Assembly (NCBI GenBank): GCA_902512415.1
Contig: CABXJB010000003.1
Location: 1-51,775, forward strand
Direction: 5' to 3'
DNA: 51,775 nt
Source of the DNA: an uncultured Alphaproteobacteria bacterium
GTDB taxonomy: Bacteria; Pseudomonadota; Alphaproteobacteria; HIMB59; GCA-002718135
Positions within the stretch are counted from its first letter, which is position 1. The number at the start of each line of letters is the position of its first letter. The notes under the pieces are model-generated. The model did not search any database. It was not told the origin of the DNA and saw only the letters and a list, made by a program, of their open reading frames with translations. The position numbers were made by a program, and so were the translations under genes. Of this stretch, positions 8,854-41,487 are shown in pieces.

Positions 8854-8866
8854 TTTACCTCCAATA

Positions 8867-8893
8867 AAGGCGAACAATTATCTTGTTCGCCTT
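8867..8893 (+). terminator. Stem-loop after aglE
   Basis: 11-bp inverted repeat AAGGCGAACAA-ttatc-TTGTTCGCCTT followed by a T-rich tract. Confidence 0.75.
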
Positions 8894-8918
8894 AAACTTT
8901 TTATATATTTATTTTTAA

Positions 8919-9902
8919 GTGAGTATCCTCGATATATCATTGATTGTTTGTTTAGGTATTGTATCCTTTATTTTATATTTTCATATATCAAATTATATTT
9001 TAGATTTTTTTGGTAATAATAATCTGAAAAGAATTAAATTTGAAAATTCTATTAGAGTTTTAATATTTATTGCTCCTGCTTGTATTATTTTATTTATTTT
9101 TATTTTATATCCAGTGTTTGAAACAATAAGGCTAAGTTTTTATGATAAATTTGGAAGAGAGTTTGTTGGACTTTACAATTACAATTGGGCTGTAAATGAT
9201 CCTGAATTTAAAAGAAGTATTTTTAATAACCTAGCTTGGTTATTAGTAGTCCCTACATTAAGTACATTTTTTGGTCTAATCATTGCCAACCTAGCAGATA
9301 GAATTTGGTGGGGATCAATTGCTAAATCAATAATTTTTATGCCGATGGCAATATCCTTTGTTGGAGCAGGCGTCATTTGGAAATTTATTTATGAATATAG
9401 AGGGCCAGGTGATACACAAATTGGATTATTAAATGCAGTTATAGTATCTTTTGGTTATGAACCACAAGCTTGGTTAACTATTCCAATTTGGAATAACTTT
9501 TTTTTAATGGCTATAATGATTTGGATTCAAACTGGCTTAGCTCTAGTTATTTTTAGTGCAGCACTAAGAGGGATACCAAAAGAGATGATTGAAGCAGCAA
9601 GAATAGATGGGGCAAGTGAATTGAAAATTTTTTTTTCCATAATTATTCCATTTTTAGAACAAACCATTTTAGTAATTTGGACTATTATTACAATTCTTGT
9701 TCTTAAAATATTTGATATCATTTTTGCTATGACCAATGGTGAATGGCAAACAGGTGTTTTGGCAAATTTAATGTATGATTGGATGTTTAGAGGCGGAGGT
9801 GATTCAGGTCGAGGTAGCGTGCTTGCTATTGTAATAATGATAGGAGTTTTTCCAATTATGGCTTGGAATATTTATAAACATAAACAAGAACAAAAAATTT
9901 AA
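8919..9902 (+). CDS. aglF: Alpha-glucoside ABC transporter permease (MalF-type)
   Basis: KSIIFMPMAISFVGAGVIWKFIY and EAARIDGA loop. GTG start. Confidence 0.88.
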   Translation: MSILDISLIVCLGIVSFILYFHISNYILDFFGNNNLKRIKFENSIRVLIFIAPACIILFIFILYPVFETIRLSFYDKFGREFVGLYNYNWAVNDPEFKRSIFNNLAWLLVVPTLSTFFGLIIANLADRIWWGSIAKSIIFMPMAISFVGAGVIWKFIYEYRGPGDTQIGLLNAVIVSFGYEPQAWLTIPIWNNFFLMAIMIWIQTGLALVIFSAALRGIPKEMIEAARIDGASELKIFFSIIIPFLEQTILVIWTIITILVLKIFDIIFAMTNGEWQTGVLANLMYDWMFRGGGDSGRGSVLAIVIMIGVFPIMAWNIYKHKQEQKI

Positions 9903-11041
9903 TGAATAAAGTTTCTCTTAGATCAATATTATCTCAGCTTTTATTATTATTATTTGTAATCATCTGGATACTCCCTACTTTTGGTCTTTTTATAAGTTCC
10001 CTAAGAGACAAAGATCTACTGGCAATCAGTGGATGGTGGAGCGCCCTTACAACTACAAATGTTAATGAAATTTATAGAATGCAGGGAATGGATGAGCAAA
10101 ATCAAGCAGATAATTATTTTATAATTACAGATAATTTATTTAAAAAAAATTCAGGTAAAAAAATAGAAACTTTTGGAATAACTTCAAAAAAAATTAATGA
10201 ATTTAAAGTTGGAGAAGTTGCTATCTTTAAAGACAAAAGTACAGTTACTGTAAATGAGGATGGTTTATATATCTGGAAATCTGAAAATGAATTTACAAAG
10301 AAAAAAGGTAAAAGGCTTTTTATTACAGCTTCAAGTCCGCCTTCATTTACATTTGATAACTATAAAGAAGTTTTGTTTCAAGAAGGTATAGGTCAAGCTT
10401 TTGTAAATACAATAGCAGTTGCTTTGCCATCAACCTTAATACCTTTAATCATTTGCTCTTATTTTGCTTATGCACTTACATGGATGCAATTTTTTGGAAG
10501 AGATACCTTACTTGCAATCATAATTGCATCTCTAGTAGTTCCTCTTCAAATGTCTCTAATACCAATATTGACAATTTATAATGATTTTGGGGCACTCTTT
10601 GGAGTCGCTGCAAAATCTTATCCTGGTGTGTGGATGGCCCATACAGGTTTTGGTTTGGCCTCAACAACATTTCTCTTGAGAAATTTTATAAAATCTCTTC
10701 CAAATGAAATGATGGAAGCTGCAAAAGTTGATGGCGCCTCACATTATGATATTTTTCTTCGTATTATAATACCTCTATCTATACCTGCTTTCGCTTCAAT
10801 TTTTATTTTACAATTTCTTTGGTGCTGGAATGATTTATTGGTAGGATTAGTTTTTTTAGACCAAGTACCTAGTGAAATAATTTTAACAGCCAAATTAAAA
10901 GAATTGCTTGGTTCTAGAGGGGAAAATTGGGAAATTTTAACAACTGGTGCTTTTGTATCCATGACGGTTCCATTATTCATATTCTTTGCATTACAAAGAT
11001 ATTTTATAAGAGGTTTAGTTGCAGGCTCAGTCAAAGGTTAA
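9902..11041 (+). CDS. aglG: Alpha-glucoside ABC transporter permease (MalG-type)
   Basis: SSLRDKDLLAISGWW, EAAKVDGA, FQ-like FLWCWNDLLV, and C-terminal RGLVAGSVKG. Confidence 0.88.
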   Translation: MNKVSLRSILSQLLLLLFVIIWILPTFGLFISSLRDKDLLAISGWWSALTTTNVNEIYRMQGMDEQNQADNYFIITDNLFKKNSGKKIETFGITSKKINEFKVGEVAIFKDKSTVTVNEDGLYIWKSENEFTKKKGKRLFITASSPPSFTFDNYKEVLFQEGIGQAFVNTIAVALPSTLIPLIICSYFAYALTWMQFFGRDTLLAIIIASLVVPLQMSLIPILTIYNDFGALFGVAAKSYPGVWMAHTGFGLASTTFLLRNFIKSLPNEMMEAAKVDGASHYDIFLRIIIPLSIPAFASIFILQFLWCWNDLLVGLVFLDQVPSEIILTAKLKELLGSRGENWEILTTGAFVSMTVPLFIFFALQRYFIRGLVAGSVKG

Positions 11042-11090
11042 AACAAGATATAATACTAGATTTTTCAACCAATATTGATATAAATTTAGC

Positions 11091-11111
11091 ATTGAATTAT
11101 GGTAATTCAAT
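11091..11111. promoter_or_regulatory. Palindromic putative operator upstream of the ABC ATPase gene
   Basis: ATTGAATTA-tgg-TAATTCAAT, a 9-bp perfect inverted repeat in the 100-bp aglG-aglK gap. Confidence 0.5.
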
Positions 11112-11141
11112 CACTTGTAAGATCGCTCAAAGGAGGATGAA

Positions 11142-12221
11142 GTGGCAGATATAAATATAAATACAGTTAATAAATATTATGGAGATGTTCACGTTATTAA
11201 AGACGTATCTCTAGATATTAAAAGTCAATCATTTACAGTTTTAGTTGGACCATCTGGTTGCGGTAAATCAACAATGTTAAGAATGATTGCGGGATTAGAA
11301 GATATTAATTCTGGAACTATTTCAATTGATGGTCAGGTTGTAAATGACTTACCGCCAAAACAAAGAAATATTGCTATGGTTTTTCAATCCTATGCTTTGT
11401 ATCCACATATGACAGTTTTTGATAATATGGCATTCGGACTTAAGCTAGAGAAAAGATCAAAAGATGAAATTAATGAACGTGTGCAAGAAGCGGCAAGAAT
11501 ACTTCAAATTGAAGATTACCTACATAGAAAACCTAAACAATTATCTGGCGGACAAAGACAAAGGGTTGCAATAGGTAGGGCTATAACTCGTAAACCAAAA
11601 GTGTTCTTATTTGATGAACCTTTATCAAATCTAGATGCTGCACTTCGTGTACAAATGCGTGTTGAGTTAGCAAAACTTCATGATCAACTTAATGCAACAA
11701 TGATTTATGTAACTCATGATCAAACAGAAGCAATGACACTCGCAAATGATATTGTCGTTCTGGATGAGGGTATAGTTTCACAAAACGGATCACCTATGGA
11801 TCTATACCATGATCCAAATAATCTATTTGTAGGGGGATTTATTGGTTCTCCTAAAATGAATTTTATCTCTACTAAAATTACAAGCAAAAGTAGTGATAAA
11901 ACAGAAGTAGATTTAATGGGATCTGCAAAAATCAGTATTCCAAAAACTTCAGCATCAGCCTCTGAAGGTGATGCGGTACAACTAGGTATTCGACCTGAGC
12001 ATCTAACTGTTAATGCGGATAGTGATGGAAGTTGGGAGAGTAAGGTGTTTGTTGTGGAAAAATTAGGATCAGGAACTTTCCTTTATCTTGAAAAAGAAGG
12101 TGAACCTCTGGTTGTTGAAACTGAGGGTGATTCAAATATTAAAGTTGGAGATACTGTAAAAGTTGGTTTTTCAGCTTCTCATTGTCATTTATTTGATAGC
12201 TCACAACAAGCTTTTAAGTAA
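11142..12221 (+). CDS. aglK: Sugar ABC transporter ATP-binding protein (MalK/AglK/MsiK family)
   Basis: GPSGCGKST, VFQSYALYPHM, LSGGQRQR, DEPLSNLD and TOBE tail GIRPEH. GTG start with AGGAGG SD. Confidence 0.92.
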   Translation: MADININTVNKYYGDVHVIKDVSLDIKSQSFTVLVGPSGCGKSTMLRMIAGLEDINSGTISIDGQVVNDLPPKQRNIAMVFQSYALYPHMTVFDNMAFGLKLEKRSKDEINERVQEAARILQIEDYLHRKPKQLSGGQRQRVAIGRAITRKPKVFLFDEPLSNLDAALRVQMRVELAKLHDQLNATMIYVTHDQTEAMTLANDIVVLDEGIVSQNGSPMDLYHDPNNLFVGGFIGSPKMNFISTKITSKSSDKTEVDLMGSAKISIPKTSASASEGDAVQLGIRPEHLTVNADSDGSWESKVFVVEKLGSGTFLYLEKEGEPLVVETEGDSNIKVGDTVKVGFSASHCHLFDSSQQAFK

Positions 12222-22973: not shown

Positions 22974-23996
22974 TTAGAAAGTTTCAGTTACCTTAGTTAA
23001 ATAACGAGGTTTATCAGGATCAAGGCCTTTTTTTTGAGCATATCGAACAATCCACGGATAAAATTTTGTCATTATGACTATAGAATCAAATTCCATAATT
23101 TTATTTGCTGGAAAGTAGAAATTTTCACTTCCCTTCATTGTTGAAGTAATATTATAAAAAAGTTTTGTATACTTTGAAATTTCATTACTATCTTTTATTA
23201 CTGTTTGACCGCTTGTGTCATTCATACTTAAAGTAAAAAGCTTAAAGGTGTCTTGAATTAAACTTTTGGGACCATGCATAACTTCTGCACTACTAAAAGG
23301 CTCTATCATTTCTTGACATAATTCCTTAAATTTAAGAGAAATCTCATTAGAGAGTGCAAAACCAACACCTCTTCCTAGAATAAAACCTGAATTAATACTT
23401 TTATTTACTAGATCTACATTCCATTGATTATTTTCATCCTCCAAAAGTGTTTCACTTAAGAGCTTTATACTATCATTAATTTGTTTTCTTCCCTCACATA
23501 TAAATACTAGCTTTTTTAAGATCAATAAAGTTTGCACAAATGATTTAGTGGCAGCTACACTTTTTTCTATACCTGCAAACATATTAAAGAAATAATTAGC
23601 AGAATTAACAATGGGACTATTTTCATTATTAGATATTAGCACTGTAATAGCTCCCATTTCTTGAGATTTTTTTTCACATTCAATTAAATCAGAACTTTTA
23701 CCCGATTGACTAATAACTATTACTAAAGCTTCAGAAAAATCAAATTTAGATTTTTCTAAAGTGATAATTGATGGCGGCATACTATATGATGGTAGTCCTA
23801 AATATTTTGCAAAAATATAAGAACTATATAACGCTGCACAATCAGAAGTTCCTCTTGCAACAGTAACTATATATTTTATTTTTTTTTGACTAATTAAATT
23901 TGCTATTTCTTGATATTGATTATTATCGATTTGAGAAAACTTATCTATAACCAATGGTATACTTAGTGCCTCTTGTAAAACTAGAGAGTTACTCAC
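22974..23996 (-). CDS. SIS-domain glucosamine-6-phosphate deaminase (NagB-II type)
   Basis: ARGTS, ISQSGKS, EKSVAATKS, SAEVMHGP and GLDPDKPRYLTKVT. Overlaps nagA. Confidence 0.85.
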   Translation of the reverse strand: MSNSLVLQEALSIPLVIDKFSQIDNNQYQEIANLISQKKIKYIVTVARGTSDCAALYSSYIFAKYLGLPSYSMPPSIITLEKSKFDFSEALVIVISQSGKSSDLIECEKKSQEMGAITVLISNNENSPIVNSANYFFNMFAGIEKSVAATKSFVQTLLILKKLVFICEGRKQINDSIKLLSETLLEDENNQWNVDLVNKSINSGFILGRGVGFALSNEISLKFKELCQEMIEPFSSAEVMHGPKSLIQDTFKLFTLSMNDTSGQTVIKDSNEISKYTKLFYNITSTMKGSENFYFPANKIMEFDSIVIMTKFYPWIVRYAQKKGLDPDKPRYLTKVTETF

Positions 23997-25074
23997 TTAC
24001 CAATTCCCCATTTAAAAAAATTTTAAGTAAATTTAAATTTTTATCCATAACAATAAAGTTTGATAAATTATTTTTTTCTAAAACACCTACATTTTCTAAT
24101 TTTAAATATTTTGATGCATTGTAACTTGTCATTCTAACAGCTTCTTCAAGAGAAAAGTTCATATCAACTAAATTTTTAAATGTTTCATGCATGGTTATTG
24201 AGCTACCTGCAAGTGTGTTTGAGTTTTTTAAATAAACTTTATTGTTTTTCTTTTCTACAGTAACTCCTGCAAAATTATACATACCATCATCTAAGCCTGT
24301 AGCAGATATGGCATCTGAAATAGCATATAGTCCAGGAATACACTTGTGAGCAATTTTAATTCCTTCTTCACTTACATGATTATTGTCACATATAATTTCA
24401 GCATATTTACCATTTAATAAAGCAGATGATAAAACTCCAGACTCTCTACTAGTGTGTCCGGACATAGCATTATATAAGTGCGTAAAGCCAATTGGATATT
24501 TACTCAAATATTCATTTGAAGTTTTAAAGTCAGCCAAAGTATGACCAAATTGCACTTGTATTTTTTTACTTATTAGAAATTTAATAAATTCATTCATTCC
24601 TTCTATTTCAGGTGCGAGAGTAATAACTTTAATATTAGCTATCTCGAGAATATTTTCTATAAATTCACTTGAAGGAAGATGGGTTAATGCTGGTTGAGCA
24701 CCTAATTTATTTGGATTAATAAAAGGACCTTCAAGATGAATCCCCTCAATATTATTTGTTGTATCTGCTACAAGTTTATTAACATCATGAAGAGCTTTTT
24801 TAATATGATCAAACTTACTTGTCCACGTCGTTGGTAATAATGTTGTAGTACCATTTAATAAATGAAAATGACTCATTTTTTTTATTGAGTCGTAACCATG
24901 CATCGTATCAAAGCCTGCTCCTCCATGACAATGGAGGTCTATATAACCAGGTAAGATAATAAGATTATCATCAACTTTTTCTTCTTTATGAATTTTTTCT
25001 ATTTTATTATTAAAAAAAATTTCGCCATAAAAGCTTTCATTATAATTTATAATTTTACCTTTTATTGAATTCAA
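23989..25074 (-). CDS. nagA: N-acetylglucosamine-6-phosphate deacetylase
   Basis: PGYIDLHCHG, HLEGPF, TLAPE, THLYNAM, SDA and LAGS. Confidence 0.93.
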   Translation of the reverse strand: MNSIKGKIINYNESFYGEIFFNNKIEKIHKEEKVDDNLIILPGYIDLHCHGGAGFDTMHGYDSIKKMSHFHLLNGTTTLLPTTWTSKFDHIKKALHDVNKLVADTTNNIEGIHLEGPFINPNKLGAQPALTHLPSSEFIENILEIANIKVITLAPEIEGMNEFIKFLISKKIQVQFGHTLADFKTSNEYLSKYPIGFTHLYNAMSGHTSRESGVLSSALLNGKYAEIICDNNHVSEEGIKIAHKCIPGLYAISDAISATGLDDGMYNFAGVTVEKKNNKVYLKNSNTLAGSSITMHETFKNLVDMNFSLEEAVRMTSYNASKYLKLENVGVLEKNNLSNFIVMDKNLNLLKIFLNGELVSE

Positions 25075-25899: not shown

Positions 25900-27111
25900 T
25901 TATTTGTATTCTTCCAATTCTTCAGCTGCTTCTGCAACTAAATCTACTGCATCACCCTCTCCAAGAATTGCTCCTTGAATCATTGAGTTCATTACAGTTT
26001 GGAATGCTTTATAATCAACAAATAGTGGCTCAGGTCCACCATCACCAATTGCATCAATAAACATCATCCAATAATCTTCATTGTATGGTGCAACTGCTCC
26101 AATTTGTGGATACTGCATTATTGGAGTCAAACCCCAATCAGTATCTAAGCTGTATTGAGAATCACCAGACGAAATGATGCTTGCTAACGCCATTGCATGC
26201 TCTTCAACACCAGTGTTATTGAAAACTGCAATACTATCTGTGATTAATAGAGTGCCTTGACTACCTTGTGGTCCAGCAGGAATTCTAACTGTACTTACAT
26301 TTAATCCTTCCTTATGCTGACCTCTTCCCCAAGGGCCATTAATATACATAGCAATTTTTTCATCATTAAATAGTTCAGTAAGTTGAGATCTCTCCCAAGC
26401 TAACGGACCTTCTTGAGCTACGTTAGCAAGTTTTCCATAAAATTCTAGAGCTTGAACTGTATTAGATGAATCAAGAGTTATCTCATTAGTTAAAGGATCA
26501 ATAACTTGCCCTCCATTACTATAAAGATAGTTTAAGAATTGGTGCATTGTATTATCAAAATCTTTACCTGCCAAACCAATGCCGGCAACTCCAGCAACAT
26601 TATTTGTCACAGCTTCTGCCATTGAATATAATTCATCCCATGTTTGAGGGCCTTCACAAGCAACACCTGCTTGCTCTAGTAAACCACAATTCATGAAAAG
26701 AGCTTTAGTTGAAAACGCGTGAGGGAAACCCCAAGTTTTGCCCATATGCGTAACTGTATTCAAAATACCTGGTTGATACATTGCTTGTTGAGAAGCAGGG
26801 ATATTTGTTTCTAAAATATGTCCATTCTCTGCAAGACCTTTTAAAGTTCTTGAACCTACATAAGAAAATGCAACTGGATCTCCTGCAATTGCAAGATTTA
26901 TTACTTTATCCTGACAAGTACCCCAAGGAACAGCCTCTAATGTTACATTAACACCAGGATTATTTTTCATATACTCATCAGCTATTTCTACGTAATTAGG
27001 TCTAAGATCACTACCACAAAAAACCCCATGCACATCAGCTGCAAAAGTTTTAAAACCAGTAAGTGAAAATATTGAAATTATAAGAAATGAAGATAGTTTT
27101 TTTAAATTCAT
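25900..27111 (-). CDS. Carbohydrate (probably amino-sugar) ABC transporter substrate-binding protein
   Basis: Signal peptide from MNLKKL with GGAGG SD. SBP_bac_1-like motifs TWDEL and AMYINGPW. Located in the nag cluster. Confidence 0.88.
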   Translation of the reverse strand: MNLKKLSSFLIISIFSLTGFKTFAADVHGVFCGSDLRPNYVEIADEYMKNNPGVNVTLEAVPWGTCQDKVINLAIAGDPVAFSYVGSRTLKGLAENGHILETNIPASQQAMYQPGILNTVTHMGKTWGFPHAFSTKALFMNCGLLEQAGVACEGPQTWDELYSMAEAVTNNVAGVAGIGLAGKDFDNTMHQFLNYLYSNGGQVIDPLTNEITLDSSNTVQALEFYGKLANVAQEGPLAWERSQLTELFNDEKIAMYINGPWGRGQHKEGLNVSTVRIPAGPQGSQGTLLITDSIAVFNNTGVEEHAMALASIISSGDSQYSLDTDWGLTPIMQYPQIGAVAPYNEDYWMMFIDAIGDGGPEPLFVDYKAFQTVMNSMIQGAILGEGDAVDLVAEAAEELEEYK

Positions 27112-27183
27112 ATTTCCTCCATTATTTATAAGACACATAACATTAAGTGGTAATATGGATCAAGGTTGTTTTACTGTTTAAGG

Positions 27184-28023
27184 CTAGTTTTTTACCGCTC
27201 CTGAGGTTAATCCTTCCACAATATATTTTTGAAGAAATAAAAAGACAATTAAAACAGGGGCTATTCCTACAAGAGATGCAGCCATCATTTCATTCCATTT
27301 CACCGTAGTATAACCAATAAATTCATACAATCCTGAAGGTATTGGCATATATTCTTTCTTTTGATTAAAGGTAATTGCAAATAAGAATTGTTGAGCATAA
27401 GCGCCTATAAATGCATAAATACCCACAACAACTAATCCAGGCGTGCTCAGAGGTGCTATGATGTGACGGAGAATTTGAACACGTGAAGCTCCATCAACAA
27501 ATGCTGCTTCTTCAAGATCTACAGGTATTTTTTCAAAATAAGATTTTAATAACCAAATTGATGTTGGAATTAAAAACGCTACACCCGGAACAATCATCGC
27601 TTGGTAACTGTTCAAAAGCCCAAATGTTCTAAGTACTTTGTATAAAGGTATTAATAAAACAGCCCCAGAGAACATATTAATTGCTAATAAAATATACAAA
27701 GAAGAATTTTTAAAAGGAAAATTAAATCTTGCGTATGAATAAGCAGCAGGAATTACAAAAAGTAAAGTTAAAATTGCTACAGAGGTTGCTAAGAAAAAAC
27801 TATTAAAAATATAACGGCCTAACATAGGTACTGTATTCCACATTTCTCTGTAAGCCCAAAAAGATAAATCATCTGAGTAAAATTGATATGGTGATCTAAA
27901 TAAATGATCTAATGGTCGAAGAGATGCATAAAACATTTCAACGAAAGGAAGTAATATAAATATTAAAAAAATTGTAATTGAAAAATATAAAATTATTTTT
28001 TCATAAAGTTTATATTTATTCAA
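27184..28023 (-). CDS. Carbohydrate ABC permease, MalG-type, copy B
   Basis: EEAAFVDGA loop and QKYIVEGLTSGAVK. TTG start 1 nt after the copy A stop. Confidence 0.88.
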   Translation of the reverse strand: MNKYKLYEKIILYFSITIFLIFILLPFVEMFYASLRPLDHLFRSPYQFYSDDLSFWAYREMWNTVPMLGRYIFNSFFLATSVAILTLLFVIPAAYSYARFNFPFKNSSLYILLAINMFSGAVLLIPLYKVLRTFGLLNSYQAMIVPGVAFLIPTSIWLLKSYFEKIPVDLEEAAFVDGASRVQILRHIIAPLSTPGLVVVGIYAFIGAYAQQFLFAITFNQKKEYMPIPSGLYEFIGYTTVKWNEMMAASLVGIAPVLIVFLFLQKYIVEGLTSGAVKN

Positions 28024-28860
28024 TCTAGTTTTTAACTGCTCCAGCAGTTAATCCTTCTACAATGTATTTTTGTAAAAATATAAATAAAATCAACACGGGT
28101 GCTATTCCAACTAGTGAGGCTGCCATCATTTCATTCCATTTAACACTTTGGTATCCAATAAATTCATACAATCCTGAAGGTATTGGCATATATTCTTTCT
28201 TTTGATTAAAGGTAATTGCAAATAAGAATTGTTGAGCATAAGCGCCTATAAATGCATAAATACCCACAACAACTAATCCAGGCGTGCTCAGAGGTGCTAT
28301 GATGTGACGGAGAATTTGAACACGTGAAGCTCCATCAACAAATGCTGCTTCTTCAAGATCTACAGGTATTTTTTCAAAATAAGATTTTAATAACCAAATT
28401 GATGTTGGAATTAAAAACGCTACACCCGGAACAATCATCGCTTGGTAACTGTTCAAAAGCCCAAATGTTCTAAGTACTTTGTATAAAGGTATTAATAAAA
28501 CAGCCCCAGAGAACATATTAATTGCTAATAAAATATACAAAGAAGAATTTTTAAAAGGAAAATTAAATCTTGCGTATGAATAAGCAGCAGGAATTACAAA
28601 AAGTAAAGTTAAAATTGCTACAGAGGTTGCTAAGAAAAAACTATTAAAAATATAACGGCCTAACATAGGTACTGTATTCCACATTTCTCTGTAAGCCCAA
28701 AAAGATAAATCATCTGAGTAAAATTGATATGGTGATCTAAATAAATGATCTAATGGTCGAAGAGATGCATAAAACATTTCAACGAAAGGAAGTAATATAA
28801 ATATTAAAAAAATTGTAATTGAAAAATATAAAATTATTTTTTCATAAAGTTTATATTTAT
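27314..28860. repeat. Direct repeat, 706 bp identical (27314-28019 = 28155-28860, period 841)
   Basis: Line-by-line comparison found no mismatch across the block. The flanking 130 bp differ. Confidence 0.95.
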
Positions 28861-28864
28861 CCAT
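28025..28864 (-). CDS. Carbohydrate ABC permease, MalG-type, copy A
   Basis: EEAAFVDGA loop and QKYIVEGLTAGAVK. ATG start overlaps the upstream permease. Confidence 0.92.
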   Translation of the reverse strand: MDKYKLYEKIILYFSITIFLIFILLPFVEMFYASLRPLDHLFRSPYQFYSDDLSFWAYREMWNTVPMLGRYIFNSFFLATSVAILTLLFVIPAAYSYARFNFPFKNSSLYILLAINMFSGAVLLIPLYKVLRTFGLLNSYQAMIVPGVAFLIPTSIWLLKSYFEKIPVDLEEAAFVDGASRVQILRHIIAPLSTPGLVVVGIYAFIGAYAQQFLFAITFNQKKEYMPIPSGLYEFIGYQSVKWNEMMAASLVGIAPVLILFIFLQKYIVEGLTAGAVKN

Positions 28865-29756
28865 GTGAAATCTTCTTATTAATCCTAGCTAGAAGAGCTA
28901 AGTAAAAACCTGCGAATAAAGTTAATAAAATCATTACAACAACTGCTCTAGCTGCACCTCTTCCAAACTTATAATTACCTAAGGCCTGCTTATATGTATC
29001 AATAATTAAAGTGGTTGTTGCACCTCTTGGACCTCCTTCAGTCAATATCCAAATTATTTCAAAAGAGTTGAAAGTCCAAATTGCTGATAATATAGACATA
29101 GTAATAATAACAGGTGTAATTTGAGGAAGTGTAATTTTAAAAAATCTGTCCCATCTAGAAGCTCCATCACAATAAGCGGCCTCATATAAATCTTTAGGAA
29201 CTCCCTGCATTGCTGCTAAGAAAAAAACTGTTACCATTGGGGTTCCGACCCATACATCAGCTACAATTGTAGAAATAAATGCACTTTGTTTATATGCAAG
29301 AAACCCAAAGGGGCCATCCAAAATTCCTGTATGCATTCCAACACCAGCAATAATACCAAAATAACCATTATAAAGCCAAAGCCATCCAAGCATACCTATA
29401 GCAATTGGGACCACCCATGGAGGCATTATTAAAACTCTAAACATAGATCGACCTCTTAAATTAGCGTTCAATAAAATTGCACCAATTAAACCAATAAATA
29501 ATTTCAAACTTACTGAAAAAAACATCCAAACGAAAGTTCTGGTAACAATTTTATTAAATTTTTTACTAGAGAGCATTTTTTCATAATTTTCAAAACCAAC
29601 ATAATCCTCTCCAGCTAAACTAGAATTTGTGAAAGATAATCTTATTGTTTCAAGAACTGGCCATGCAACAATTAATAAAATATAAATTGCAGCTGGAGCT
29701 ATTAGCGCATAAGCTAAAAATGTTGGTGAGTTAAAAGATTTTAATTTTTTATTCAT
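28857..29756 (-). CDS. Carbohydrate ABC permease, MalF-type
   Basis: VGFENY, LYEAAYCDGA and ILTEGGP. Confidence 0.92.
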   Translation of the reverse strand: MNKKLKSFNSPTFLAYALIAPAAIYILLIVAWPVLETIRLSFTNSSLAGEDYVGFENYEKMLSSKKFNKIVTRTFVWMFFSVSLKLFIGLIGAILLNANLRGRSMFRVLIMPPWVVPIAIGMLGWLWLYNGYFGIIAGVGMHTGILDGPFGFLAYKQSAFISTIVADVWVGTPMVTVFFLAAMQGVPKDLYEAAYCDGASRWDRFFKITLPQITPVIITMSILSAIWTFNSFEIIWILTEGGPRGATTTLIIDTYKQALGNYKFGRGAARAVVVMILLTLFAGFYLALLARINKKISHG

Positions 29757-29758
29757 TT

Positions 29759-30907
29759 TTAATTTTTAATTTCTTCATCTAACCTATTCCAACTATTTGT
29801 TAAATCTATTATTTTCCCAGTTTTTCTTGATTCATCTATTTTCATAGCCACTATACCAGCCTCAATACAGTCTTTTACACCAACAGGTAGATTCATCTTT
29901 TCAGAATTAGTTAAGTGATGATTTATATCTTGCAGCATAAGATTATCAGCTCCATAGTGCCCTTTTGAAGCTCCAAAAGCTGCACCATAATCTTCATCTA
30001 ATACTATATTATTTTGTTGATCGTGAGCTTTAAGAAATCCTCTTACAAAATCTCCTTCGACCATGCCGTTAGTACCTATAACAGCAAAACGTCTAAATTC
30101 ATCTGGAACTCGCATGTTTGTATGAAAAGCCAAAGTAGCTCCGTTTTCATATTCAATTATTGCTACTTGATGATCAACAATATCAGCATCACTATCGAAT
30201 ACATTCTCTTTAGATTCCCATCCAAATAAATTATATTTTGAGTACTCATCTAAATTTTCATTTGGCGTATTTTGAGGAATAAATGAATTTCTTCCACCAA
30301 AACTCGCAACCCTTTTTGGTCTGCAACCAGCTATCATATTATAAAAATCTAAATCATGACAACATTTCTCTAACATAAAGCCGCCTGAGAATTTTTCTTT
30401 TCGACGCCAATTTCGCATAAAGAATCCTCCGTGCCAAGGCATAATGTGCTCTGAAGCTTCAATAGACACAACATTACCTAAAACATTTTTATCTATTAAA
30501 TCCCTAACTGATCTTGCATGTTGAGAATATCTAAGAACAAGTCCGACCAAAACTTGTTCTTGCCCAAATTCACTCAATAGTTTTGCTAACTCAAAAGATT
30601 GTTTTTCATCAACAACTATTGGTTTTTCTGCAAAAATTTTAATTCCAGCATTTAGCCCAATAGTAATATGTTCTAGATGCAAATGATTTGGAGAGCCAAT
30701 CATCAAAAGATCTAATTTTTCATTAGATAGCATATCATTTAAGTTAGAATATTCCTTAGATGGAAAAAAATTATGCTTTTCTGCGTAATGCTTACCTATA
30801 GGCTTAGGATCTACATAGGCAATCAATTTTGAATCTTTATTTATTTGAGATAATTCGTGGTATATATGCGCTATTCTGTTTCCAAACCCTACTGCCCCAA
30901 TTTTCAT
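29759..30907 (-). CDS. Gfo/Idh/MocA family oxidoreductase
   Basis: GFGNR, AEKP, LEKCCHDLD and GHYGAD. Confidence 0.9.
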   Translation of the reverse strand: MKIGAVGFGNRIAHIYHELSQINKDSKLIAYVDPKPIGKHYAEKHNFFPSKEYSNLNDMLSNEKLDLLMIGSPNHLHLEHITIGLNAGIKIFAEKPIVVDEKQSFELAKLLSEFGQEQVLVGLVLRYSQHARSVRDLIDKNVLGNVVSIEASEHIMPWHGGFFMRNWRRKEKFSGGFMLEKCCHDLDFYNMIAGCRPKRVASFGGRNSFIPQNTPNENLDEYSKYNLFGWESKENVFDSDADIVDHQVAIIEYENGATLAFHTNMRVPDEFRRFAVIGTNGMVEGDFVRGFLKAHDQQNNIVLDEDYGAAFGASKGHYGADNLMLQDINHHLTNSEKMNLPVGVKDCIEAGIVAMKIDESRKTGKIIDLTNSWNRLDEEIKN

Positions 30908-30937: not shown

Positions 30938-32800
30938 CTAAAAATTATGAAACTTCCAGCCTAATTTTGTCAAAAATTCTAAATTATTTATCAATGATGA
31001 TCTAAATTGACTCCATGATCTTTTTGCTTTTGAACACCAAGCTATTTCAGCAAGAGCAGCAAGACGTGGATTAATCATTTGGTCAAAATAATCTTTATTT
31101 GTAATTGTTTCTGACCAAAGCTGACCTTGGATACCTAAGATATTAACCAGATCATTAGTTTCATAATCCTGAATAGGTTTCCATTCAAACACTTCTCTTA
31201 CTTCTATTGTAGCTGCCCAACAAATTCCCCTTTCATATGTAGAATTATTATAAGCCATATCAAAATATGTTTTATGACCGGGACAAAGGACAGTTTTAAA
31301 TCCTTTTTTGGCAGACATCAATCCAACATCTGGATGCTCCCATGCAAAAATAATACATGATTTATCGATTTTACCTGCACTGCCAGCAGATCCTATTTCA
31401 TTATGTGGAGGTAGTGCGGCCTCATTCCAAGCTGCTGTTAATTTATTTGAATTTTTTAAAATATTAATAATAATATTCATATAGTCATCTTGTAGTTCAT
31501 CAAAAGAAGTGATGTTATTTTTTTTCATGTATTCAATGACTTTGGGTGAACCTTCCCAAGACTCTTTGGGTCTTTCATCAACTCCAACATGAATGATGTT
31601 AAATGAAAAAATTTCACTTAATTCTTCTAAAATATTTTTTAAAAAAACATGCGTCTCATCAATCGCAGGATTAATCGTATTATTCGGATAATTACCCACA
31701 TCCTCTGAAATAATATTAGATGATGAATCTCTTAACTCAGGCATCACTTGCAACAATGTCCAGGAGTGAGCTGGTAAATCAATCTCTGGCATAATTTGAA
31801 TATTACGTTGTTTTGCGTAATCAGTTAATGCTTTAATTTGACTTCGTGAGTAATAACCACCAGTCTTATTATATCCAGTACCATAGAAGGGTGGTATATT
31901 TTCATTATAGCCCCTGAAAGAACCGATCTTAGTTAATTTTGGATAACTTGCTAATTCAACTCTCCATGCTTCGTTGTCAGTTAAATGCCAATGAAAACGA
32001 TTTAATTTAAAAAAACACATATAATCCATTAGTCTTTTTATTTCATCGATGGAATAAAACTGCCTTGCACAATCTAAATGCATTCCTCTCCAGCCTAAAC
32101 TAGGTTTATCTTCTATTGATCCTAATGGTAATTTTGATTTATAAAAATTTATAAGTTGTATCAACGTGATAATTGAATAAAATTTTCCACCATAATCAGA
32201 ATAATGAATTGTAATTATTTTTTTATCAATCACAATTTTGTATTCATCAGTTTCTAAATTTTTTTTAATAAAAACAATTGGATGACCTATTGATGTGTTA
32301 AATTTTATATCAGATACTTTTACAAAATTATTAAAATTTTTAAAAAAATTTTTTTCACTTGATGATATTTTAAATTCTGAATTTGTAATTTGAATAGTTT
32401 CTTTTTTTAAATTTGATATAAACGGAACAGGAATAACTGGATCAAATTTATTCTCCTGATCATTAGAATAAATGATCTCAGGTATTGGGTCCTCAAATTT
32501 GAGAACATTTATTTTACATTCTAATTTTTCATCATTTTTTCCAATAATAAATAACCCTTCAGGTCCGCAAGAAAGATTATAAGAGCCTATTCTTGGTTTC
32601 TGTAATGTAAAAATTATTTCATCTTGTTCAGAAAAAATTTCATAATATCTACCAACTTTTTTGGAAATTTTCCCACCATCAACATCTTGAATTGAATAAA
32701 CAAGAGAAAAACAAATTTTAAAATTACCGTGCTGATGTGCATTATTCGAAATAGATAATTTTAATTTATTATTTTTAGTAAAAATTAAGTGTATTTCCAT
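30938..32800 (-). CDS. Beta-N-acetylhexosaminidase (GH20), no signal peptide
   Basis: WRGMHLDCAR, FHWHLTD, PEIDLPAH, HVGVDE catalytic pair, LWSE and PRLAALAE. ATG 32800 is preferred over TTG 32806. Confidence 0.92.
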   Translation of the reverse strand: MEIHLIFTKNNKLKLSISNNAHQHGNFKICFSLVYSIQDVDGGKISKKVGRYYEIFSEQDEIIFTLQKPRIGSYNLSCGPEGLFIIGKNDEKLECKINVLKFEDPIPEIIYSNDQENKFDPVIPVPFISNLKKETIQITNSEFKISSSEKNFFKNFNNFVKVSDIKFNTSIGHPIVFIKKNLETDEYKIVIDKKIITIHYSDYGGKFYSIITLIQLINFYKSKLPLGSIEDKPSLGWRGMHLDCARQFYSIDEIKRLMDYMCFFKLNRFHWHLTDNEAWRVELASYPKLTKIGSFRGYNENIPPFYGTGYNKTGGYYSRSQIKALTDYAKQRNIQIMPEIDLPAHSWTLLQVMPELRDSSSNIISEDVGNYPNNTINPAIDETHVFLKNILEELSEIFSFNIIHVGVDERPKESWEGSPKVIEYMKKNNITSFDELQDDYMNIIINILKNSNKLTAAWNEAALPPHNEIGSAGSAGKIDKSCIIFAWEHPDVGLMSAKKGFKTVLCPGHKTYFDMAYNNSTYERGICWAATIEVREVFEWKPIQDYETNDLVNILGIQGQLWSETITNKDYFDQMINPRLAALAEIAWCSKAKRSWSQFRSSLINNLEFLTKLGWKFHNF

Positions 32801-32828
32801 TATCAATAATTTATATATTTAGTTTATC

Positions 32829-36568: not shown

Positions 36569-37660
36569 TTAATTGCTTAGTGATTTTAAAAGTCTTAATT
36601 TTCCTTCAGCAGCATCGTGCCCAAGATAACATCCTTGAAGATGTCTTAATCCAGTATTTGGAAAAAATTTTGTTCTTCCATGAAGTAACCGATGATTATC
36701 AAACATCATCAATGTACTTTTCTTTAATCTAAATTTAATTTGAAAATCTGAAGAGTTACATAACTTAAAAAAAAATTTTCTTGCTTTATAATATTTAGTA
36801 AGTCTATCTTTATCTAGTAAAGGTACATAATCAGATCTTCCATTCAATCTTATTTGTTTAAAGTCTCCATTTGAATCGAGTTCAATAATCTTGCCTTTAT
36901 TTTCAAGAATTATATCTTTATCAATAAACTTAAATAAAACTTCTGTAGATGTTAGAGTGTCAAAGTAACATTTATTATTTTTTCTTAAATATTCACAGAC
37001 ACTATATCCATCGACTAATGCAGTATCACCTCCTTTAGCCTCATTAGTAATACAATGCAAAATTTGAATACCTGGGACTGGTTTTCGATAAGGATTATCT
37101 GTATGAACAGATAATCCTAAAGAAGTATATGCGAGATTATTTGCTTTTTTTTTTGAAATTACATCAAAAATTCTTCCATAATTTGTTTCAATTATAGGAC
37201 CAATTCTTTCTGCAAACTTAATGATCTCTTTTTCTTTAGCCTCAATATTATTAATTATTACAAATCCATATTCGTAAAATTTTTCAAGCAAGTTAATTAA
37301 TAATTTTTCATCATTGTTTAAAAAAGACGAATCAAATTGCAACATTTTTAAATCAATACTTGCCGACCAAAAGATCTTTTTAGGAATAAAGTCTTTTCCA
37401 ATAATTTCTTTATGTAAATTATAAATATTATAATTAGATTCAGTTTTATCACTAAACCTAACATACAATAATTGATTATTAATTTTATAATCTAATATAA
37501 AAATATCTATATCTATTAAGGACGGATCATAAAGGCGTTGTAAATTATTTGTATCTAAATTTATTTCGTCTGTAACACGTTCTCTTAACCATAATGCATG
37601 CAAATAATAACCCTTTAATGGACCTTCTTTTAGATTAATGCCTCTGATACGATTATTCAC
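36569..37660 (-). CDS. TauD/gamma-butyrobetaine hydroxylase family Fe(II)/2OG dioxygenase
   Basis: WLRE, NLAYT, HTDNPY, DNHRLLHGR and RHLQGCY. Confidence 0.88.
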   Translation of the reverse strand: MNNRIRGINLKEGPLKGYYLHALWLRERVTDEINLDTNNLQRLYDPSLIDIDIFILDYKINNQLLYVRFSDKTESNYNIYNLHKEIIGKDFIPKKIFWSASIDLKMLQFDSSFLNNDEKLLINLLEKFYEYGFVIINNIEAKEKEIIKFAERIGPIIETNYGRIFDVISKKKANNLAYTSLGLSVHTDNPYRKPVPGIQILHCITNEAKGGDTALVDGYSVCEYLRKNNKCYFDTLTSTEVLFKFIDKDIILENKGKIIELDSNGDFKQIRLNGRSDYVPLLDKDRLTKYYKARKFFFKLCNSSDFQIKFRLKKSTLMMFDNHRLLHGRTKFFPNTGLRHLQGCYLGHDAAEGKLRLLKSLSN

Positions 37661-37734
37661 AACAAATAATATTTATATTTCTAAATATTAATCAAATATA
37701 TAATTTACAATCAAAAATTGCAATTTTAAGATAA

Positions 37735-37755
37735 GCGCTACTAATAAAGTAGCGC
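37735..37755 (-). terminator. Stem-loop after the aminomethyltransferase gene
   Basis: GCGCTACT-aataa-AGTAGCGC. Confidence 0.6.
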
Positions 37756-37764
37756 CTAGAAATT

Positions 37765-38964
37765 TTAAGCTTTTCCTACTGGAATCTGTTTCTTCGGATC
37801 CCAAAATGGTAAATCTTCTACAACTGATTCTAATTCACCATATGGAGAATTTATAAAAAACTTACATCCTTTATTTGTGTATTCAATAGGAACAAAAGCA
37901 TAAGCAATGTTTTTCTTTAATCTTGGAGAAAAACATTTTGATGTAACATATCCAATTTCTTCACCTTTATCATTATTCACTGGCCAATGATCAGGCACAA
38001 AATAACCTGGTGTGTATGTCGGAGGAACAATTTCTGTTATCGATTCACCTAATATTTCAATTCCTACCAATTTTCTTTTTATTCCTTCCTGTTTAATTTT
38101 TTTTAATGCTTCTTTCCCACAAAAATCAGCTTCCATTTCTAAATCAACTAATCTATCCATTCCTATCTCATAGGGATTATCAGTAACACGCATATCTTGA
38201 AAATAAGAAAAAATTCCTGCCTCTACTCGTCTTATTTGAGAAGGACCAGTTGGTGCAATTTTATAAGGTTCACCAGCTGCCATTATTTTTTCATATAAAT
38301 CTGCACCACGTTTTTCATCACGTAAATAAACCTCGTAACCAATCTCGCCACTCCAACCTGTTCTTGATATTACAACTGGAATTTCATCTATTTCAGTTTC
38401 TTTACACCAATAATATTCTAAATCATTTATCCAAGATCCAAACAAATCAACCATAACATTTTTGGATTTTGGTCCCTGAACTTGCAAAGGTGAAACATCT
38501 GGTTCGCATAAGTTTATATCATATTTTCCATTTCCAGCTACTCCCATTGCCCACAATAACAAGTCACTGTCTGAAATTGAATACCACCAGTGATTCTCTC
38601 CTAATCTTAACAATATAGGATCACTAAGAATTCCACCATCATAGTTGGTATTTAATACGTACTTGCATTGGTTAATCTGACAATCAGATAAGTTTCTCGG
38701 TGTTAAAAGTTGTGTAAATTTGCTAGCATCTGGACCTGTTATTTCGACTTGTCTTTCAACTGCTACATCCCACAATGTAACATCATTTACTAAACTCCAG
38801 TAATCATCTTCTGGTGTATTATAATAAACTGGAAAATACATATGATTGTATGTTGTATATTCTTTGCAACCCCACTTTAAAGTTGATTCAAAATAAGGTG
38901 ATTTTCTTACTCTAGTTCCAAATCCTAAATGTGGCTTTGGAGGACTATTTGTTGGTTTGGCCAT
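37765..38964 (-). CDS. GcvT-family aminomethyltransferase/demethylase (DmdA-like paralog)
   Basis: YNHM, WDVAVERQVEITGPDA, SRTGWSGEIGYE and RRVEAG. Confidence 0.88.
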   Translation of the reverse strand: MAKPTNSPPKPHLGFGTRVRKSPYFESTLKWGCKEYTTYNHMYFPVYYNTPEDDYWSLVNDVTLWDVAVERQVEITGPDASKFTQLLTPRNLSDCQINQCKYVLNTNYDGGILSDPILLRLGENHWWYSISDSDLLLWAMGVAGNGKYDINLCEPDVSPLQVQGPKSKNVMVDLFGSWINDLEYYWCKETEIDEIPVVISRTGWSGEIGYEVYLRDEKRGADLYEKIMAAGEPYKIAPTGPSQIRRVEAGIFSYFQDMRVTDNPYEIGMDRLVDLEMEADFCGKEALKKIKQEGIKRKLVGIEILGESITEIVPPTYTPGYFVPDHWPVNNDKGEEIGYVTSKCFSPRLKKNIAYAFVPIEYTNKGCKFFINSPYGELESVVEDLPFWDPKKQIPVGKA

Positions 38965-39066
38965 ACTAACTCCTTATAAAATTATAAAAATATATGATCA
39001 TTTTTTATTGATCTGTCTAGAAAATTTTACTGTAAATGAATTTTTCTTTTGGATAATTTTAAAGTG

Positions 39067-41487
39067 CTAACTACGCAATCTTTCATTCATTGGATCATAT
39101 GCTATCTGATCTAAAACAAACGCTTTCCTTTTTATTCCTTGAATTTTTATTTCGAATTCTTTTACATTATTAACTATTTCTGCATCTACATATGCAAAAG
39201 CAAGACTTTTATTGACTCTAAAGCCAAATCCTCCTGAAGTAACTACTCCAACTATCTTATTATTATGGTACACAGGCTCATTTCCTCTAGCATCTACATC
39301 CTCAACATCGATCTCAAGATAAACTATTTTAATATCAACTCCTGATTGCAGTTTTTCTCTAAGAATCTCTGAACCAATAAAATTACTTTTTTTATTTAAA
39401 TTAAAAAAACGATCCATACCTGCTTCTATCAAACTAATTTCTCCAGTCAATTCTGTACCCCAACCACGATAAGCTTTTTCCATCCTCAGTGAGTTAACAG
39501 CATAGGTTCCAAAATTGGAAATGTTTTCATTTTTACCTACTTCATAAATTGCATCATATAAAGATTCCATCTGTTTTATTGGATGGTGTAATTCCCAGCC
39601 CAATTCTCCCATATAATTAATTCGAAGTGCTCGTACAGAAACTTTATTAATCTCTATTTCTTTTCCTTTTAACCAAGGAAAATTTTTGTTATCTAATCTT
39701 TCAGAAGTTAGTTGTGATAAAATATTTCTAGATTTTGGTCCTACTAAAACAAGAACTCCGTAATCTTCGGTTACGTTCTTTATTTCAACTTTTTCTTCTT
39801 TATTTAGATTATGGTTAAACCAGTCTAAATCCCTTATTTCTGATGCAGTGGCTGATAGAACATAAAAATTATTATTTGCTAATCTAGTTATAGTTAGTTC
39901 ACTTTGAATTCTACCTATTTTATTAAGCGTGTGAGCTAGAATAATATTACCTTCTTTTTTTGGAACTGAGTTTGCACATAAGCGATCTAGATATGTTTCA
40001 CTGTCCTTTCCTTTAATTTCATATTTTGCAAAGGTGCTTAAATCTAAAATACCTACGTTATGTTGAACATTTGCACATTCTTTTTGTACATAAGGAAAGG
40101 CATTTGTTCTTTTAAAACTATATTCTTCTTTCATTCCAGGTTTTGCAAACCATGTAGGTTTTTCCCATCCATAAGTGTCTAAATACATAGCACCCATATC
40201 TTTTAACTTCTTGTAAATTGGAGTAGTTTTATTAGGTCTTCCAATTTCGATACTTTCATTAGGCATAGGTGTTACATACATTCTTTTGTATTGATCGGTT
40301 GATTTTTGAATAGCATAATCTTTTGTTGTCCAACTCATGTATCTTCTGGGTTCAAATTCCAACATGTTAATTTCAGCATCTCCATGAACTATCCATTGTG
40401 CAAGATATTTTCCAACCCCTCCTCCTTGAGCAATTCCTATACTTGCTGCGCACGCCATCCAAAAATTTTTTAAACCAGGTGCAGGACCAGCTAAAAAATT
40501 GTCATCTGGCGTATGAGTGATAGGTCCACAAATAATTTTTTTTATTCCAACATCTTTAAACTCTGGAATTCTGTTCATTCCTATTTCTAAATGCTTTTCA
40601 ATTCTATCGAGTTCAGGTTCTAATAACTCCATATCAAAATTCCAATCCATTCCATCTAAAGCCCAAGTTTTTGCATCAATTTCATAAGGACCAATTAATA
40701 ACCCCTTACCTTCTTGTCTTAGGTAAGCAGAAGATTCCGGATCTCTTGTAACTGGTAATTCTTTTGTTAATTTTTTAATTTCTGGATGTTCATCCGTTAC
40801 CAAATAATGATGTATCATGTTTATACTTGGTATATTTTTTAAACCAACCATTTCACCAACTTCTGGACAAAAGCTTCCTGCTGCATTAACAACATGTTCG
40901 CAAATAATATCTCCATTTTCAGTAAATACTTTCCATTCTCCTGATGGAAGTAACTTAATATCGGTCACTCTATTATTTCTGTATATCTTAGCTCCACCGT
41001 TTCTGGCTCCTTTGGCCATAGCATTTGTGGTACTCGTAGGATCAGTATGTCCATCTTCTAAAGTATAAAATGCTCCAACAATTCCATCGAGTTTTATAAA
41101 TGGATGAATTTTTTTAATTTCTTCAGGCGAAATTATTTCTGCTGGTGCCCCGACATTATCTAAAATTCCTTTAATATAATGAAACCATTCAATATCTTCC
41201 TTTTTATAAGCCAATCTTAAACTACCACAATCATGAAAACCCGTAGCTTGACCCGTTTCTTTTTCTAATTGTTTATAAAGATTTGTCGAATGTAAATGTA
41301 CTTTAGCTAAATTATAGCTTCCAATCATATGTGGGCATTGACCAGCAGCATGCCATGTAGAACCTGAGGTAAGTTCACCTTTTTCAATTAAAACAATATC
41401 GGTCCAATTTTCTTTAGTGAGGTGATAAAGGAGACTAACACCAAGTATCCCCCCTCCAACTATTACTACTTGAGTATGAGTTTTCAT
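39067..41487 (-). CDS. Dimethylglycine/sarcosine dehydrogenase-like GcvT family flavoprotein
   Basis: GGGILG, ELTSGSTWHAAG, YLRQEG, GELGWELH and NSLRMEKAY. 806 aa. Confidence 0.92.
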   Translation of the reverse strand: MKTHTQVVIVGGGILGVSLLYHLTKENWTDIVLIEKGELTSGSTWHAAGQCPHMIGSYNLAKVHLHSTNLYKQLEKETGQATGFHDCGSLRLAYKKEDIEWFHYIKGILDNVGAPAEIISPEEIKKIHPFIKLDGIVGAFYTLEDGHTDPTSTTNAMAKGARNGGAKIYRNNRVTDIKLLPSGEWKVFTENGDIICEHVVNAAGSFCPEVGEMVGLKNIPSINMIHHYLVTDEHPEIKKLTKELPVTRDPESSAYLRQEGKGLLIGPYEIDAKTWALDGMDWNFDMELLEPELDRIEKHLEIGMNRIPEFKDVGIKKIICGPITHTPDDNFLAGPAPGLKNFWMACAASIGIAQGGGVGKYLAQWIVHGDAEINMLEFEPRRYMSWTTKDYAIQKSTDQYKRMYVTPMPNESIEIGRPNKTTPIYKKLKDMGAMYLDTYGWEKPTWFAKPGMKEEYSFKRTNAFPYVQKECANVQHNVGILDLSTFAKYEIKGKDSETYLDRLCANSVPKKEGNIILAHTLNKIGRIQSELTITRLANNNFYVLSATASEIRDLDWFNHNLNKEEKVEIKNVTEDYGVLVLVGPKSRNILSQLTSERLDNKNFPWLKGKEIEINKVSVRALRINYMGELGWELHHPIKQMESLYDAIYEVGKNENISNFGTYAVNSLRMEKAYRGWGTELTGEISLIEAGMDRFFNLNKKSNFIGSEILREKLQSGVDIKIVYLEIDVEDVDARGNEPVYHNNKIVGVVTSGGFGFRVNKSLAFAYVDAEIVNNVKEFEIKIQGIKRKAFVLDQIAYDPMNERLRS

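Follow-up and report, generated by a model that had tools for sequence, protein, structure and literature searches.

Two tandem MalG-type permease genes, probably old paralogs shaped by gene conversion, in an uncultured marine alphaproteobacterium

The Streptomyces CUT1 importers for N-acetylglucosamine and chitobiose, NgcEFG and DasABC, are formed of a binding protein and two permeases, lack an ATPase of their own and are associated with amino-sugar catabolism, and are not known to have more than one MalG-type gene each. In bacteria, gene conversion is a familiar process among paralogs, for example the tuf genes. Here we describe a locus of similar architecture to the Streptomyces importers in which two MalG-type ATP-binding cassette (ABC) permease genes lie in tandem, on contig CABXJB010000003.1 (GenBank assembly GCA_902512415.1) of an uncultured Alphaproteobacteria bacterium; "the window" refers to the whole stretch of DNA analysed, 51,775 nucleotides (nt) in length. 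The genome under study is designated G000, copy 1 is the upstream and copy 2 the downstream gene, and gene nt are counted from the start codon. We conclude that these are probably two functional, anciently duplicated genes of one CUT1-type importer, which have been shaped by gene conversion.

In the E. coli maltose importer (MalFGK2-MalE, PDB 2R6G), the P3 or scoop loop of MalG (residues 236-262) enters the sugar site of the binding protein and its deletion abolishes transport (PMC6906923). Before translocation, MalG holds the sugar at its reducing end by two hydrogen bonds (PMC13543919). The two proteins described here resemble E. coli MalG in having a PF00528 domain, six hydrophobic segments, an EAA loop, a C-terminal GLTAGxVK motif and an alignable P3 loop. 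Unlike MalG, they score below the cut-off of the maltose MalG equivalog NF008231, their locus context indicates amino sugars and not maltodextrins, and two copies follow one malF-type gene whereas E. coli has one malG. The closest solved protein is SugB of the mycobacterial LpqY-SugABC system (PDB 8JA7 and 7CAD; E 2e-32 and 3.1e-32, residues 17-278), which is also a CUT1 second permease of similar length, although its system is one for trehalose, has only one SugB and differs in the residues of the loop region. Two MalG paralogs per genome also occur in Thermotoga (malG1 and malG2), but there they are found in separate mal operons and have a large extra hydrophilic region, unlike the genes here, and the available part of the paper makes no mention of gene conversion (PMC2246101). 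Concerted evolution of prokaryotic paralogs consists in recurrent conversion that leaves within-genome paralogs closer than orthologs over parts of genes, as we observe, and a survey of it names in its main text no ABC, permease or transporter gene among 26 long-lasting cases (PMC6053082). Conversion in our locus differs from those surveyed cases in being patchy and in leaving fixed amino-acid islands, one of which is in a functionally important loop. A keyword search of open-access text found no described tandem MalG pair and no converting ABC permease paralogs, which is not proof of their absence.

Both reading frames of the G000 pair are open, and base-by-base comparison showed 31 differences over 840 nt, at gene nt 1 and nt 4 and at 29 positions within nt 711-831 (Table 1). 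The original prediction, which was made from the letters alone, had claimed 706 identical nt followed by tails with about 29 differences in 130 nt, five amino-acid changes and intact frames, and in direct comparison each of these statements was exact. From copy 1 to copy 2 the start region changes by M1L (TTG) and D2N, and the tail by Q239T, S240T, L260V, I262L and A274S, with the identical block ending 4 nt ahead of codon 239 and L260V and I262L representing two residues of transmembrane segment 6 (TM6) that still differ between the copies. Using 423 polymorphic sites in 40 aligned sequences and 10,000 Sawyer-type permutations, we observed that the G000 copies are concordant over 360 consecutive sites, compared with a permutation mean of 51 and a maximum of 146. 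The identity run of the two copies is far beyond chance, in line with gene conversion.

We examined the age and spread of the pair in a genus sample of 105 genomes, one per species, using a match threshold of E <= 1e-60. At least two matches were present in 51 genomes, one in 30 and none in 24, and 22 other complete pairs could be extracted, from 21 genomes and one metagenome contig, so that the same tandem pair, sought as the original prediction had advised, is present in relatives. The start codon was ATG in 25/25 copy-1 and TTG in 25/25 copy-2 sequences, the arrangement of stop codon, 1 nt and TTG was common to those relatives' pairs whose junction was examined from match coordinates, and the gene order GH20-GFO-MalF-G-(G)-SBP, ending in the solute-binding protein (SBP) gene, was kept in relatives. 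Ten genomes have just one gene with MalF and the binding protein on either side of it on the same contig, and seven of the ten have the appearance of pre-duplication lineages, namely G006, G033 and the five examined members of a group at ~82% identity. The maximum-likelihood tree built from the tail (nt 711-837) placed every copy-2 row, together with the sequence G001_s, in one clade with support of 99/94.9, and a forced clade of the two G000 tails was rejected with a p-value of 8.6e-10 in the approximately unbiased (AU) test. The synonymous divergence (dS) between the two G000 tails is ~2.1, with a ratio of non-synonymous to synonymous divergence (dN/dS) of 0.04. When compared with the same-position tails of the relative G066, the copy-1 tail has seven synonymous and no non-synonymous differences and the copy-2 tail has none at all over nt 709-837. 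On this sequence evidence there is one old duplication inside the genus, with tails that are orthologous by position. The suggestion that the copies are old paralogs is hence borne out by the presence of the pair across the genus, the shared starts and junction, the positional tail clades and the tail dS of ~2. A recent simple tandem duplication was also considered and is ruled out, as the tails are synonymously saturated (dS ~2) and orthologous by position.

During this survey we also observed irregular forms of the pair. Many contigs of relatives break inside it, for example in genomes with at least two matches (G002:C41, G028:C8, G034:C30, G079:C30 and G117:C48/C40) and in genomes with one (G019:C23, G010:C11, G121:C47, G064:C111 and G080:C24), and single-match genomes therefore cannot all be counted as single-copy. 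Three relatives have a single chimeric gene with a copy-1 5' part and a copy-2 3' part (L029 in G001, L044 in G109 and L045 in G088), with the switch at nt 417-710 in G001 and G109 and at nt 34-205 in G088, and the cause is either unequal recombination that truly deleted sequence or the collapse of a loop during assembly. In G029 (L018), copy 1 (2382-3179) loses its frame near codon 258 and ends ~40 nt before copy 2, and is perhaps a pseudogene or the result of misassembly.

We assigned the ancestry of each part of the G000 copies using 46 diagnostic sites, at which the two copies are distinct throughout the seven nearest pairs. Copy 1 has the copy-1 state at nt 1, the copy-2 state at 16/16 sites in nt 14-75 and the copy-1 state at 29/29 sites in nt 146-831. 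Copy 2 has the copy-2 state at 17 sites up to nt 75, the copy-1 state at 20/20 sites in nt 146-416 and the copy-2 state at nine sites from nt 711. In the nearest species, the identity of the copy-2-type stretch in copy 1 (tract A) is 93-98% to their copy 2 and 61-68% to their copy 1. Within the copy-1-type stretch of copy 2 (tract B), the encoded protein has G69, V82 and S139, while other copy-2 sequences have P (24/24), T (23/24) and T (24/24), respectively. Furthermore, genes flanking the pair are 92-100% identical to those of the nearest species while the converted stretches are only 70-82% identical to the same-position copy, and this drop is what would be expected of a change on the G000 lineage. 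G000 has in this way lost P69, T82 and T139 from copy 2 and the original N-terminus from copy 1. A single unequal crossover was rejected as the sole cause, as this would give a triplication or one chimera and not a 2-then-1 mosaic shared by both genes.

In the other 22 pairs, 105-184 of the 840 nt distinguish one copy from the other, and the longest run of identity is 29-239 nt. Concordant runs exceeded those of the permutations in 13/14 pairs tested, with the metagenome pair M032 as the exception (P <= 0.036, a value that overstates the significance, as the genomes are kin and not independent). We then compared 60-nt windows in eight representative genomes, which are again kin. The within-genome paralog distance was far below the cross-genome paralog distance at nt 61-180, 301-360 and 421-660; at nt 481-540, for example, it was 0.06 within compared with 0.16 across genomes, and 0.16 compared with 0.43 at third positions. 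The two distances were equal at nt 1-60, 181-300, 361-420, 661-720 and 781-837, and in windows holding fixed residues within-genome paralogs were not closer. Across the whole gene, dS between paralogs was 0.57-2.2 and mostly below that of orthologs between species groups (1.1-2.3), despite the older duplication. The dN/dS was 0.04-0.13 between paralogs and 0.016-0.04 between orthologs, and judged by these ratios purifying selection acts on both copies. For the relatives, gene-wide concerted evolution was not retained as an explanation, as the grouping by species group seen with FastTree at nt 151-710 was not borne out by IQ-TREE and the AU test.

Conversion has not removed every difference between the copies. 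When 24 copy-1 and 24 copy-2 sequences were compared with G000 excluded, nine sites had no state shared between the copies and all were at codon positions 1 or 2; these correspond to the start codon, a codon 7 difference, G/P69, S/T139, Q/T239, S/T240 and A/S274. The V/T82 difference is nearly as constant, with T in 23/24 copy-2 sequences outside G000. In some relatives, such as G011, the two copies hardly differ over most of the tail after nt 720 and yet T-T and S274 are kept, which indicates that specific codons are protected and not the tail as such. The original prediction had described paralogs kept homogeneous by conversion except for the tail. Conversion does explain the identical block in G000, but as a general description this is too strong, as the 22 other pairs differ widely, residues in the body are fixed and in some relatives most of the tail has itself been converted.

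Two further sequences depart from the usual copy-2 pattern. Copy 2 of G073 (L039) has copy-1 states at nt 241-255 (residues 81-85) and matches copy 1 of that genome at 98% identity over nt 241-300, with P69, T139, T-T and S274 kept, and is thus a second lineage with one island lost. A metagenome scan for the copy-2-type 5' end returned two loci, L032, which is an ordinary diverged pair with 184 differences, and L033, a 2002-nt contig of 1x coverage that holds tail 1, the junction and 540 nt of copy 2 and, after 709 nt, passes into an unrelated RNase-H-like frame. Copy 2 of L033 has G69 and copy-1-type residues 80-85 but T139; this contig is probably chimeric and was given no weight.

The surviving differences were placed on the protein using comparison with the family. 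Copy 1 and copy 2 score 45.4 and 48.0 bits, respectively, with the PF00528 profile (cut-off 26.4), the scores of the pair with NF008231 are 110.1 and 111.8 bits (cut-off 261), and their nearest relatives among PDB chains using phmmer are SugB, as above, and E. coli MalG (E 3.8e-24); by these searches both genes are MalG-like but not maltose MalG. Hydropathy analysis gave six segments, at ~10-28, 76-94, 109-127, 141-159, 188-215 and 246-264, and an EEAAFVDGAS motif aligns to the MalG EAA region; the orientation predicted from the family puts this EAA loop on the cytoplasmic side, between TM4 and TM5. The predicted P3 loop lies at ~216-245, in the interval between TM5 and TM6, and can be aligned to E. 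coli MalG 236-262. The phmmer alignment places Q239 on Q256 and W243 on W260 of E. coli MalG, which confirms the earlier observation that copy 1 has a Gln four residues before this Trp where copy 2 has Thr. Insertion of the scoop loop and contact with the sugar are known only for E. coli, and the loop of the two copies may have the same role. From hydropathy and family topology, residues 69, 82, 139 and 239-240 are predicted on the periplasmic side and residue 274 in the cytoplasmic C-terminal tail.

We propose that, following a single duplication inside the genus, copy 2 would have kept P69, T139, T239/T240 and S274 while non-reciprocal homologous recombination between the copies repeatedly erased the differences between these positions. 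In G000, one event would have transferred copy 1 sequence into copy 2 from ~nt 100 to 710 and another would have transferred copy 2 sequence into copy 1 from nt 5 to ~nt 100; as one edge of the later event would be hidden in sequence that was already identical, the abutting tracts need no coincidence. Sequence comparison establishes that the pair is old, that conversion took place, which way the G000 tracts run and that both copies are constrained. Copy 2 may be translated by coupling at TAG-N-TTG, and the two proteins may each serve, one in place of the other, with the one MalF-like subunit, the one binding protein and a shared ATPase. In that case they could differ in scoop-loop unloading or in selection of the sugar, with selection on the scoop-loop residues stopping conversion from becoming fixed across them. 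We put forward only tentatively, and with some doubt, the fuller proposal that two exchangeable subunits, unlike mainly at the periplasmic mouth (69, 82, 139 and 239-240), give two transporters with differing unloading or substrate range from one operon, with selection acting against the flux of conversion.

Several points weigh against a pair of functional, converting paralogs, in addition to the kinship of the genomes. In the body of the gene (nt 5-710) a copy-2 clade is not rejected by IQ-TREE and the AU test (p-AU 0.43, or 0.38 without G000 and G001), which implies that homogenisation in relatives is patchy and not gene-wide. The operon has one binding protein, and both the expression of copy 2 and the function are predicted. 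Substrate contact by Gln256, on which the original prediction had drawn, was unconfirmed, with no occurrence of Gln256, Q256 or 256 in the maltose-transporter texts searched. The assembly itself is 925 kb in 55 contigs, 61.6% complete and similar to a metagenome-assembled genome (MAG) or single-amplified genome, with the window forming a whole contig, and the runs holding the sequence are marine metagenomes. When two Logan sets and two raw-read runs were compared with 26700-28154, a stretch with a single copy of the block together with the junction and tail 1, the Logan pieces listed were 76-911 nt and the raw runs held 8 and 9 reads, a depth that gives no copy number. One X2 piece (27919-28048, with two other letters) does span the junction, with only 24-29 letters in tail 1, fewer than the 31 required. 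We also observed one Logan contig (X1, at 28029) that has tail 1, the stop codon, ~20 other letters and a start like the copy-1-type start of some relatives; this single record hints at a further junction form in the sampled population.

These features of the assembly bear on the alternative that the pair is real but that its true copies differ inside the 706-nt block, with bubbles merged and a loop walked twice (MalF, block, tail 1, block, tail 2). A bubble-popping short-read assembler walking a simple loop could indeed hide real differences between copies, and such an origin would be in keeping with a fragmented, incomplete assembly from marine metagenome-type data, with the contigs of relatives that break inside the pair whether they have one match or at least two, with a possible collapsed loop in the three relatives with a single chimera and with the lack in the MAG of a leftover contig of copy-2-type body, though small contigs are usually dropped. 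However, the block forks at gene nt 4/5 and 710/711 and reads must join the MalF end and ATGGAT to a copy-2-type N-terminus, which in all other pairs is the most divergent stretch (63-78% identity at nt 1-60); a fork of this kind is no bubble, and the N-terminal conversion at least is therefore real. For the rest to collapse, each diverged patch would have to lie between identical stretches no shorter than k, which would already mean homogenisation well beyond that of any relative (longest runs 29-239 nt), and the mosaic has one switch point and not a random mix of branches. We consider this origin unlikely; an assembly artefact, which the original prediction had allowed for, is excluded for the tandem arrangement by the 22 other pairs and stays conceivable for hidden differences inside the 706-nt block.

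An alternative of quite another kind is that copy 2 is redundant, serving dosage only or heading for loss, with the remaining differences as neutral leftovers. G000 tolerates loss of the residues specific to the copy 2 body, G001, G109 and G088 have a single chimeric gene, the 3' end of copy 1 is disrupted in G029 and only one binding protein is available, all of which would suit redundancy. Set against this, five residues are fixed in 24 sequences of one copy against 24 of the other despite frequent nearby conversion, all nine fixed sites are of non-synonymous type, dN/dS between paralogs is 0.04-0.13 and the TTG start and junction are kept in 25/25, and we regard redundancy as quite improbable. 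Recombination with a divergent allele, which had also been suggested originally and in which a recent exact duplicate received one of its tails from a different strain or species, appears more improbable still. The copy-2 tail does equal that of G066 over nt 709-837, and exchange between species is plausible given the 97-100% identity that several species show in the 5' part of their binding-protein gene. But 22 other pairs have, position for position, the two tails, the TTG start and the 1-nt junction, a recent exact duplicate would not give a copy-2-like 5' end with a copy-1-like middle, and each tail has its match in the nearest species at the same position, so that this suggestion lacks support. 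The reading that we prefer remains that of two old paralogs shaped by conversion.

Table 1. Coordinates in the window of the tandem permease pair, its parts and other genes discussed
Feature	Position	Strand	Basis or remark
Copy 1, MalG-type ABC permease, 279 aa, 840 nt	28025..28864	(-)	Open reading frame; ATG start overlapping end of MalF-like gene; Q239-S240
Copy 2, MalG-type ABC permease, 279 aa, 840 nt	27184..28023	(-)	Open reading frame; TTG start; T239-T240
1-nt spacer between copy 1 TAG and copy 2 TTG, taken as the ancient duplication junction	28024..28024	(-)	Sequence; same layout in relatives
Identical 706-nt block within copy 1 (gene nt 5-710)	28155..28860	(-)	0 differences to copy 2
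Identical 706-nt block within copy 2 (gene nt 5-710)	27314..28019	(-)	0 differences to copy 1
Copy 1 tail, gene nt 711-840: predicted P3 loop end, TM6 and C-terminal tail	28025..28154	(-)	29/130 nt unlike copy 2 tail
Copy 2 tail, gene nt 711-840	27184..27313	(-)	0 differences to G066 copy-2 tail, nt 709-837; copy-2 clade
Codons 239-240 of copy 1, CAA AGT (Q S)	28145..28150	(-)	Q239 aligned to E. coli MalG Q256
Codons 239-240 of copy 2, ACT ACG (T T)	27304..27309	(-)	T-T in 24/24 other copy-2 sequences
Tract A, copy-2-type sequence in copy 1, gene nt 5-75 at least, possibly to nt 145 (28720)	28790..28860	(-)	16/16 diagnostic sites
Tract B, copy-1-type sequence in copy 2	27314..27878	(-)	20/20 diagnostic sites, nt 146-416; identity on to nt 710; left edge maybe nt 76
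MalF-type partner permease, 299 aa, single copy	28857..29756	(-)	PF00528, 67.4 bits; MalF/UgpA-like
Solute-binding protein, 412 aa, the only one of the operon	25900..27138	(-)	SBP_bac_1 and SBP_bac_8; single in relatives
GH20 hexosaminidase	30938-32806	(-)	Profile match; syntenic in relatives
GFO/IDH/MocA oxidoreductase	29759-30907	(-)	Profile match; syntenic in relatives
nagA-like deacetylase	23989-25074	(-)	NCBIfam TIGR00221, 233.5 bits (cut-off 225.65)
NagB-II-like deaminase	22974-23996	(-)	NF046059, 224.6 bits, below cut-off of 430
MalK/UgpC-type ATPase of a second CUT1 system	11142..12221	(+)	NF008653, 477.1 bits (cut-off 432)

The locus runs, all on the minus strand, from the GH20 hexosaminidase through the GFO/MocA oxidoreductase, the MalF-type permease, copy 1 and copy 2 to the binding protein, and the MalF-type gene was single in every relative locus examined. 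The nagA-like and NagB-II-like neighbours suggest an N-acetylhexosamine substrate, genes with SIS domains also adjoin the permease locus, and from this context the importer probably transports an N-acetylhexosamine-containing sugar. A profile scan found no ATPase gene within the permease locus, and the MalK/UgpC-type gene of a second CUT1 system is therefore a candidate for a shared ATPase.

Elsewhere in the window, the regions 7546-12221 and 36569-41487 hold this second CUT1 sugar system, its MalK-type ATPase included, together with genes for dimethylsulfoniopropionate (DMSP) demethylase-like, dimethylglycine/sarcosine-type and trimethylamine-related enzymes; these extra sugar and DMSP/methylamine-type genes would be fitting for a streamlined marine heterotroph. 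Adjacent to the pair, the 5' third of the binding-protein gene (26700-27138) is 97-100% identical between G000 and several species (L030, L034, L037 and L038) while its neighbours are 88-95% identical, which could reflect recent interspecies exchange or strong constraint.

The mechanism of conversion in this locus is ordinary, and what makes it a testable case is the combination of conserved, putatively alternative subunits that have a fixed scoop-loop difference with a near-isogenic pair. The locus would also be a clear case, in bacteria, of selection setting limits to conversion, with fixed non-synonymous islands in a homogenised background, in a streamlined marine lineage. For genome reconstruction the pair is an assembly hazard, as it is associated with contig breaks and with single chimeric genes in some MAGs. 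To our knowledge, the share of the membrane subunits in substrate choice by ABC importers is known in detail for little beyond the E. coli maltose system. Conserved alternative MalG-type subunits, found as a pair in at least 51 species-level genomes and with surviving differences at the scoop loop and other positions predicted to face the periplasm, would represent a natural experiment on that share. The G000 pair is almost isogenic, with five differing residues after the first two, and if the two proteins are indeed exchangeable subunits then G000 would represent a minimal swap made by nature, with nothing but the scoop-loop pair and three tail residues to tell them apart.

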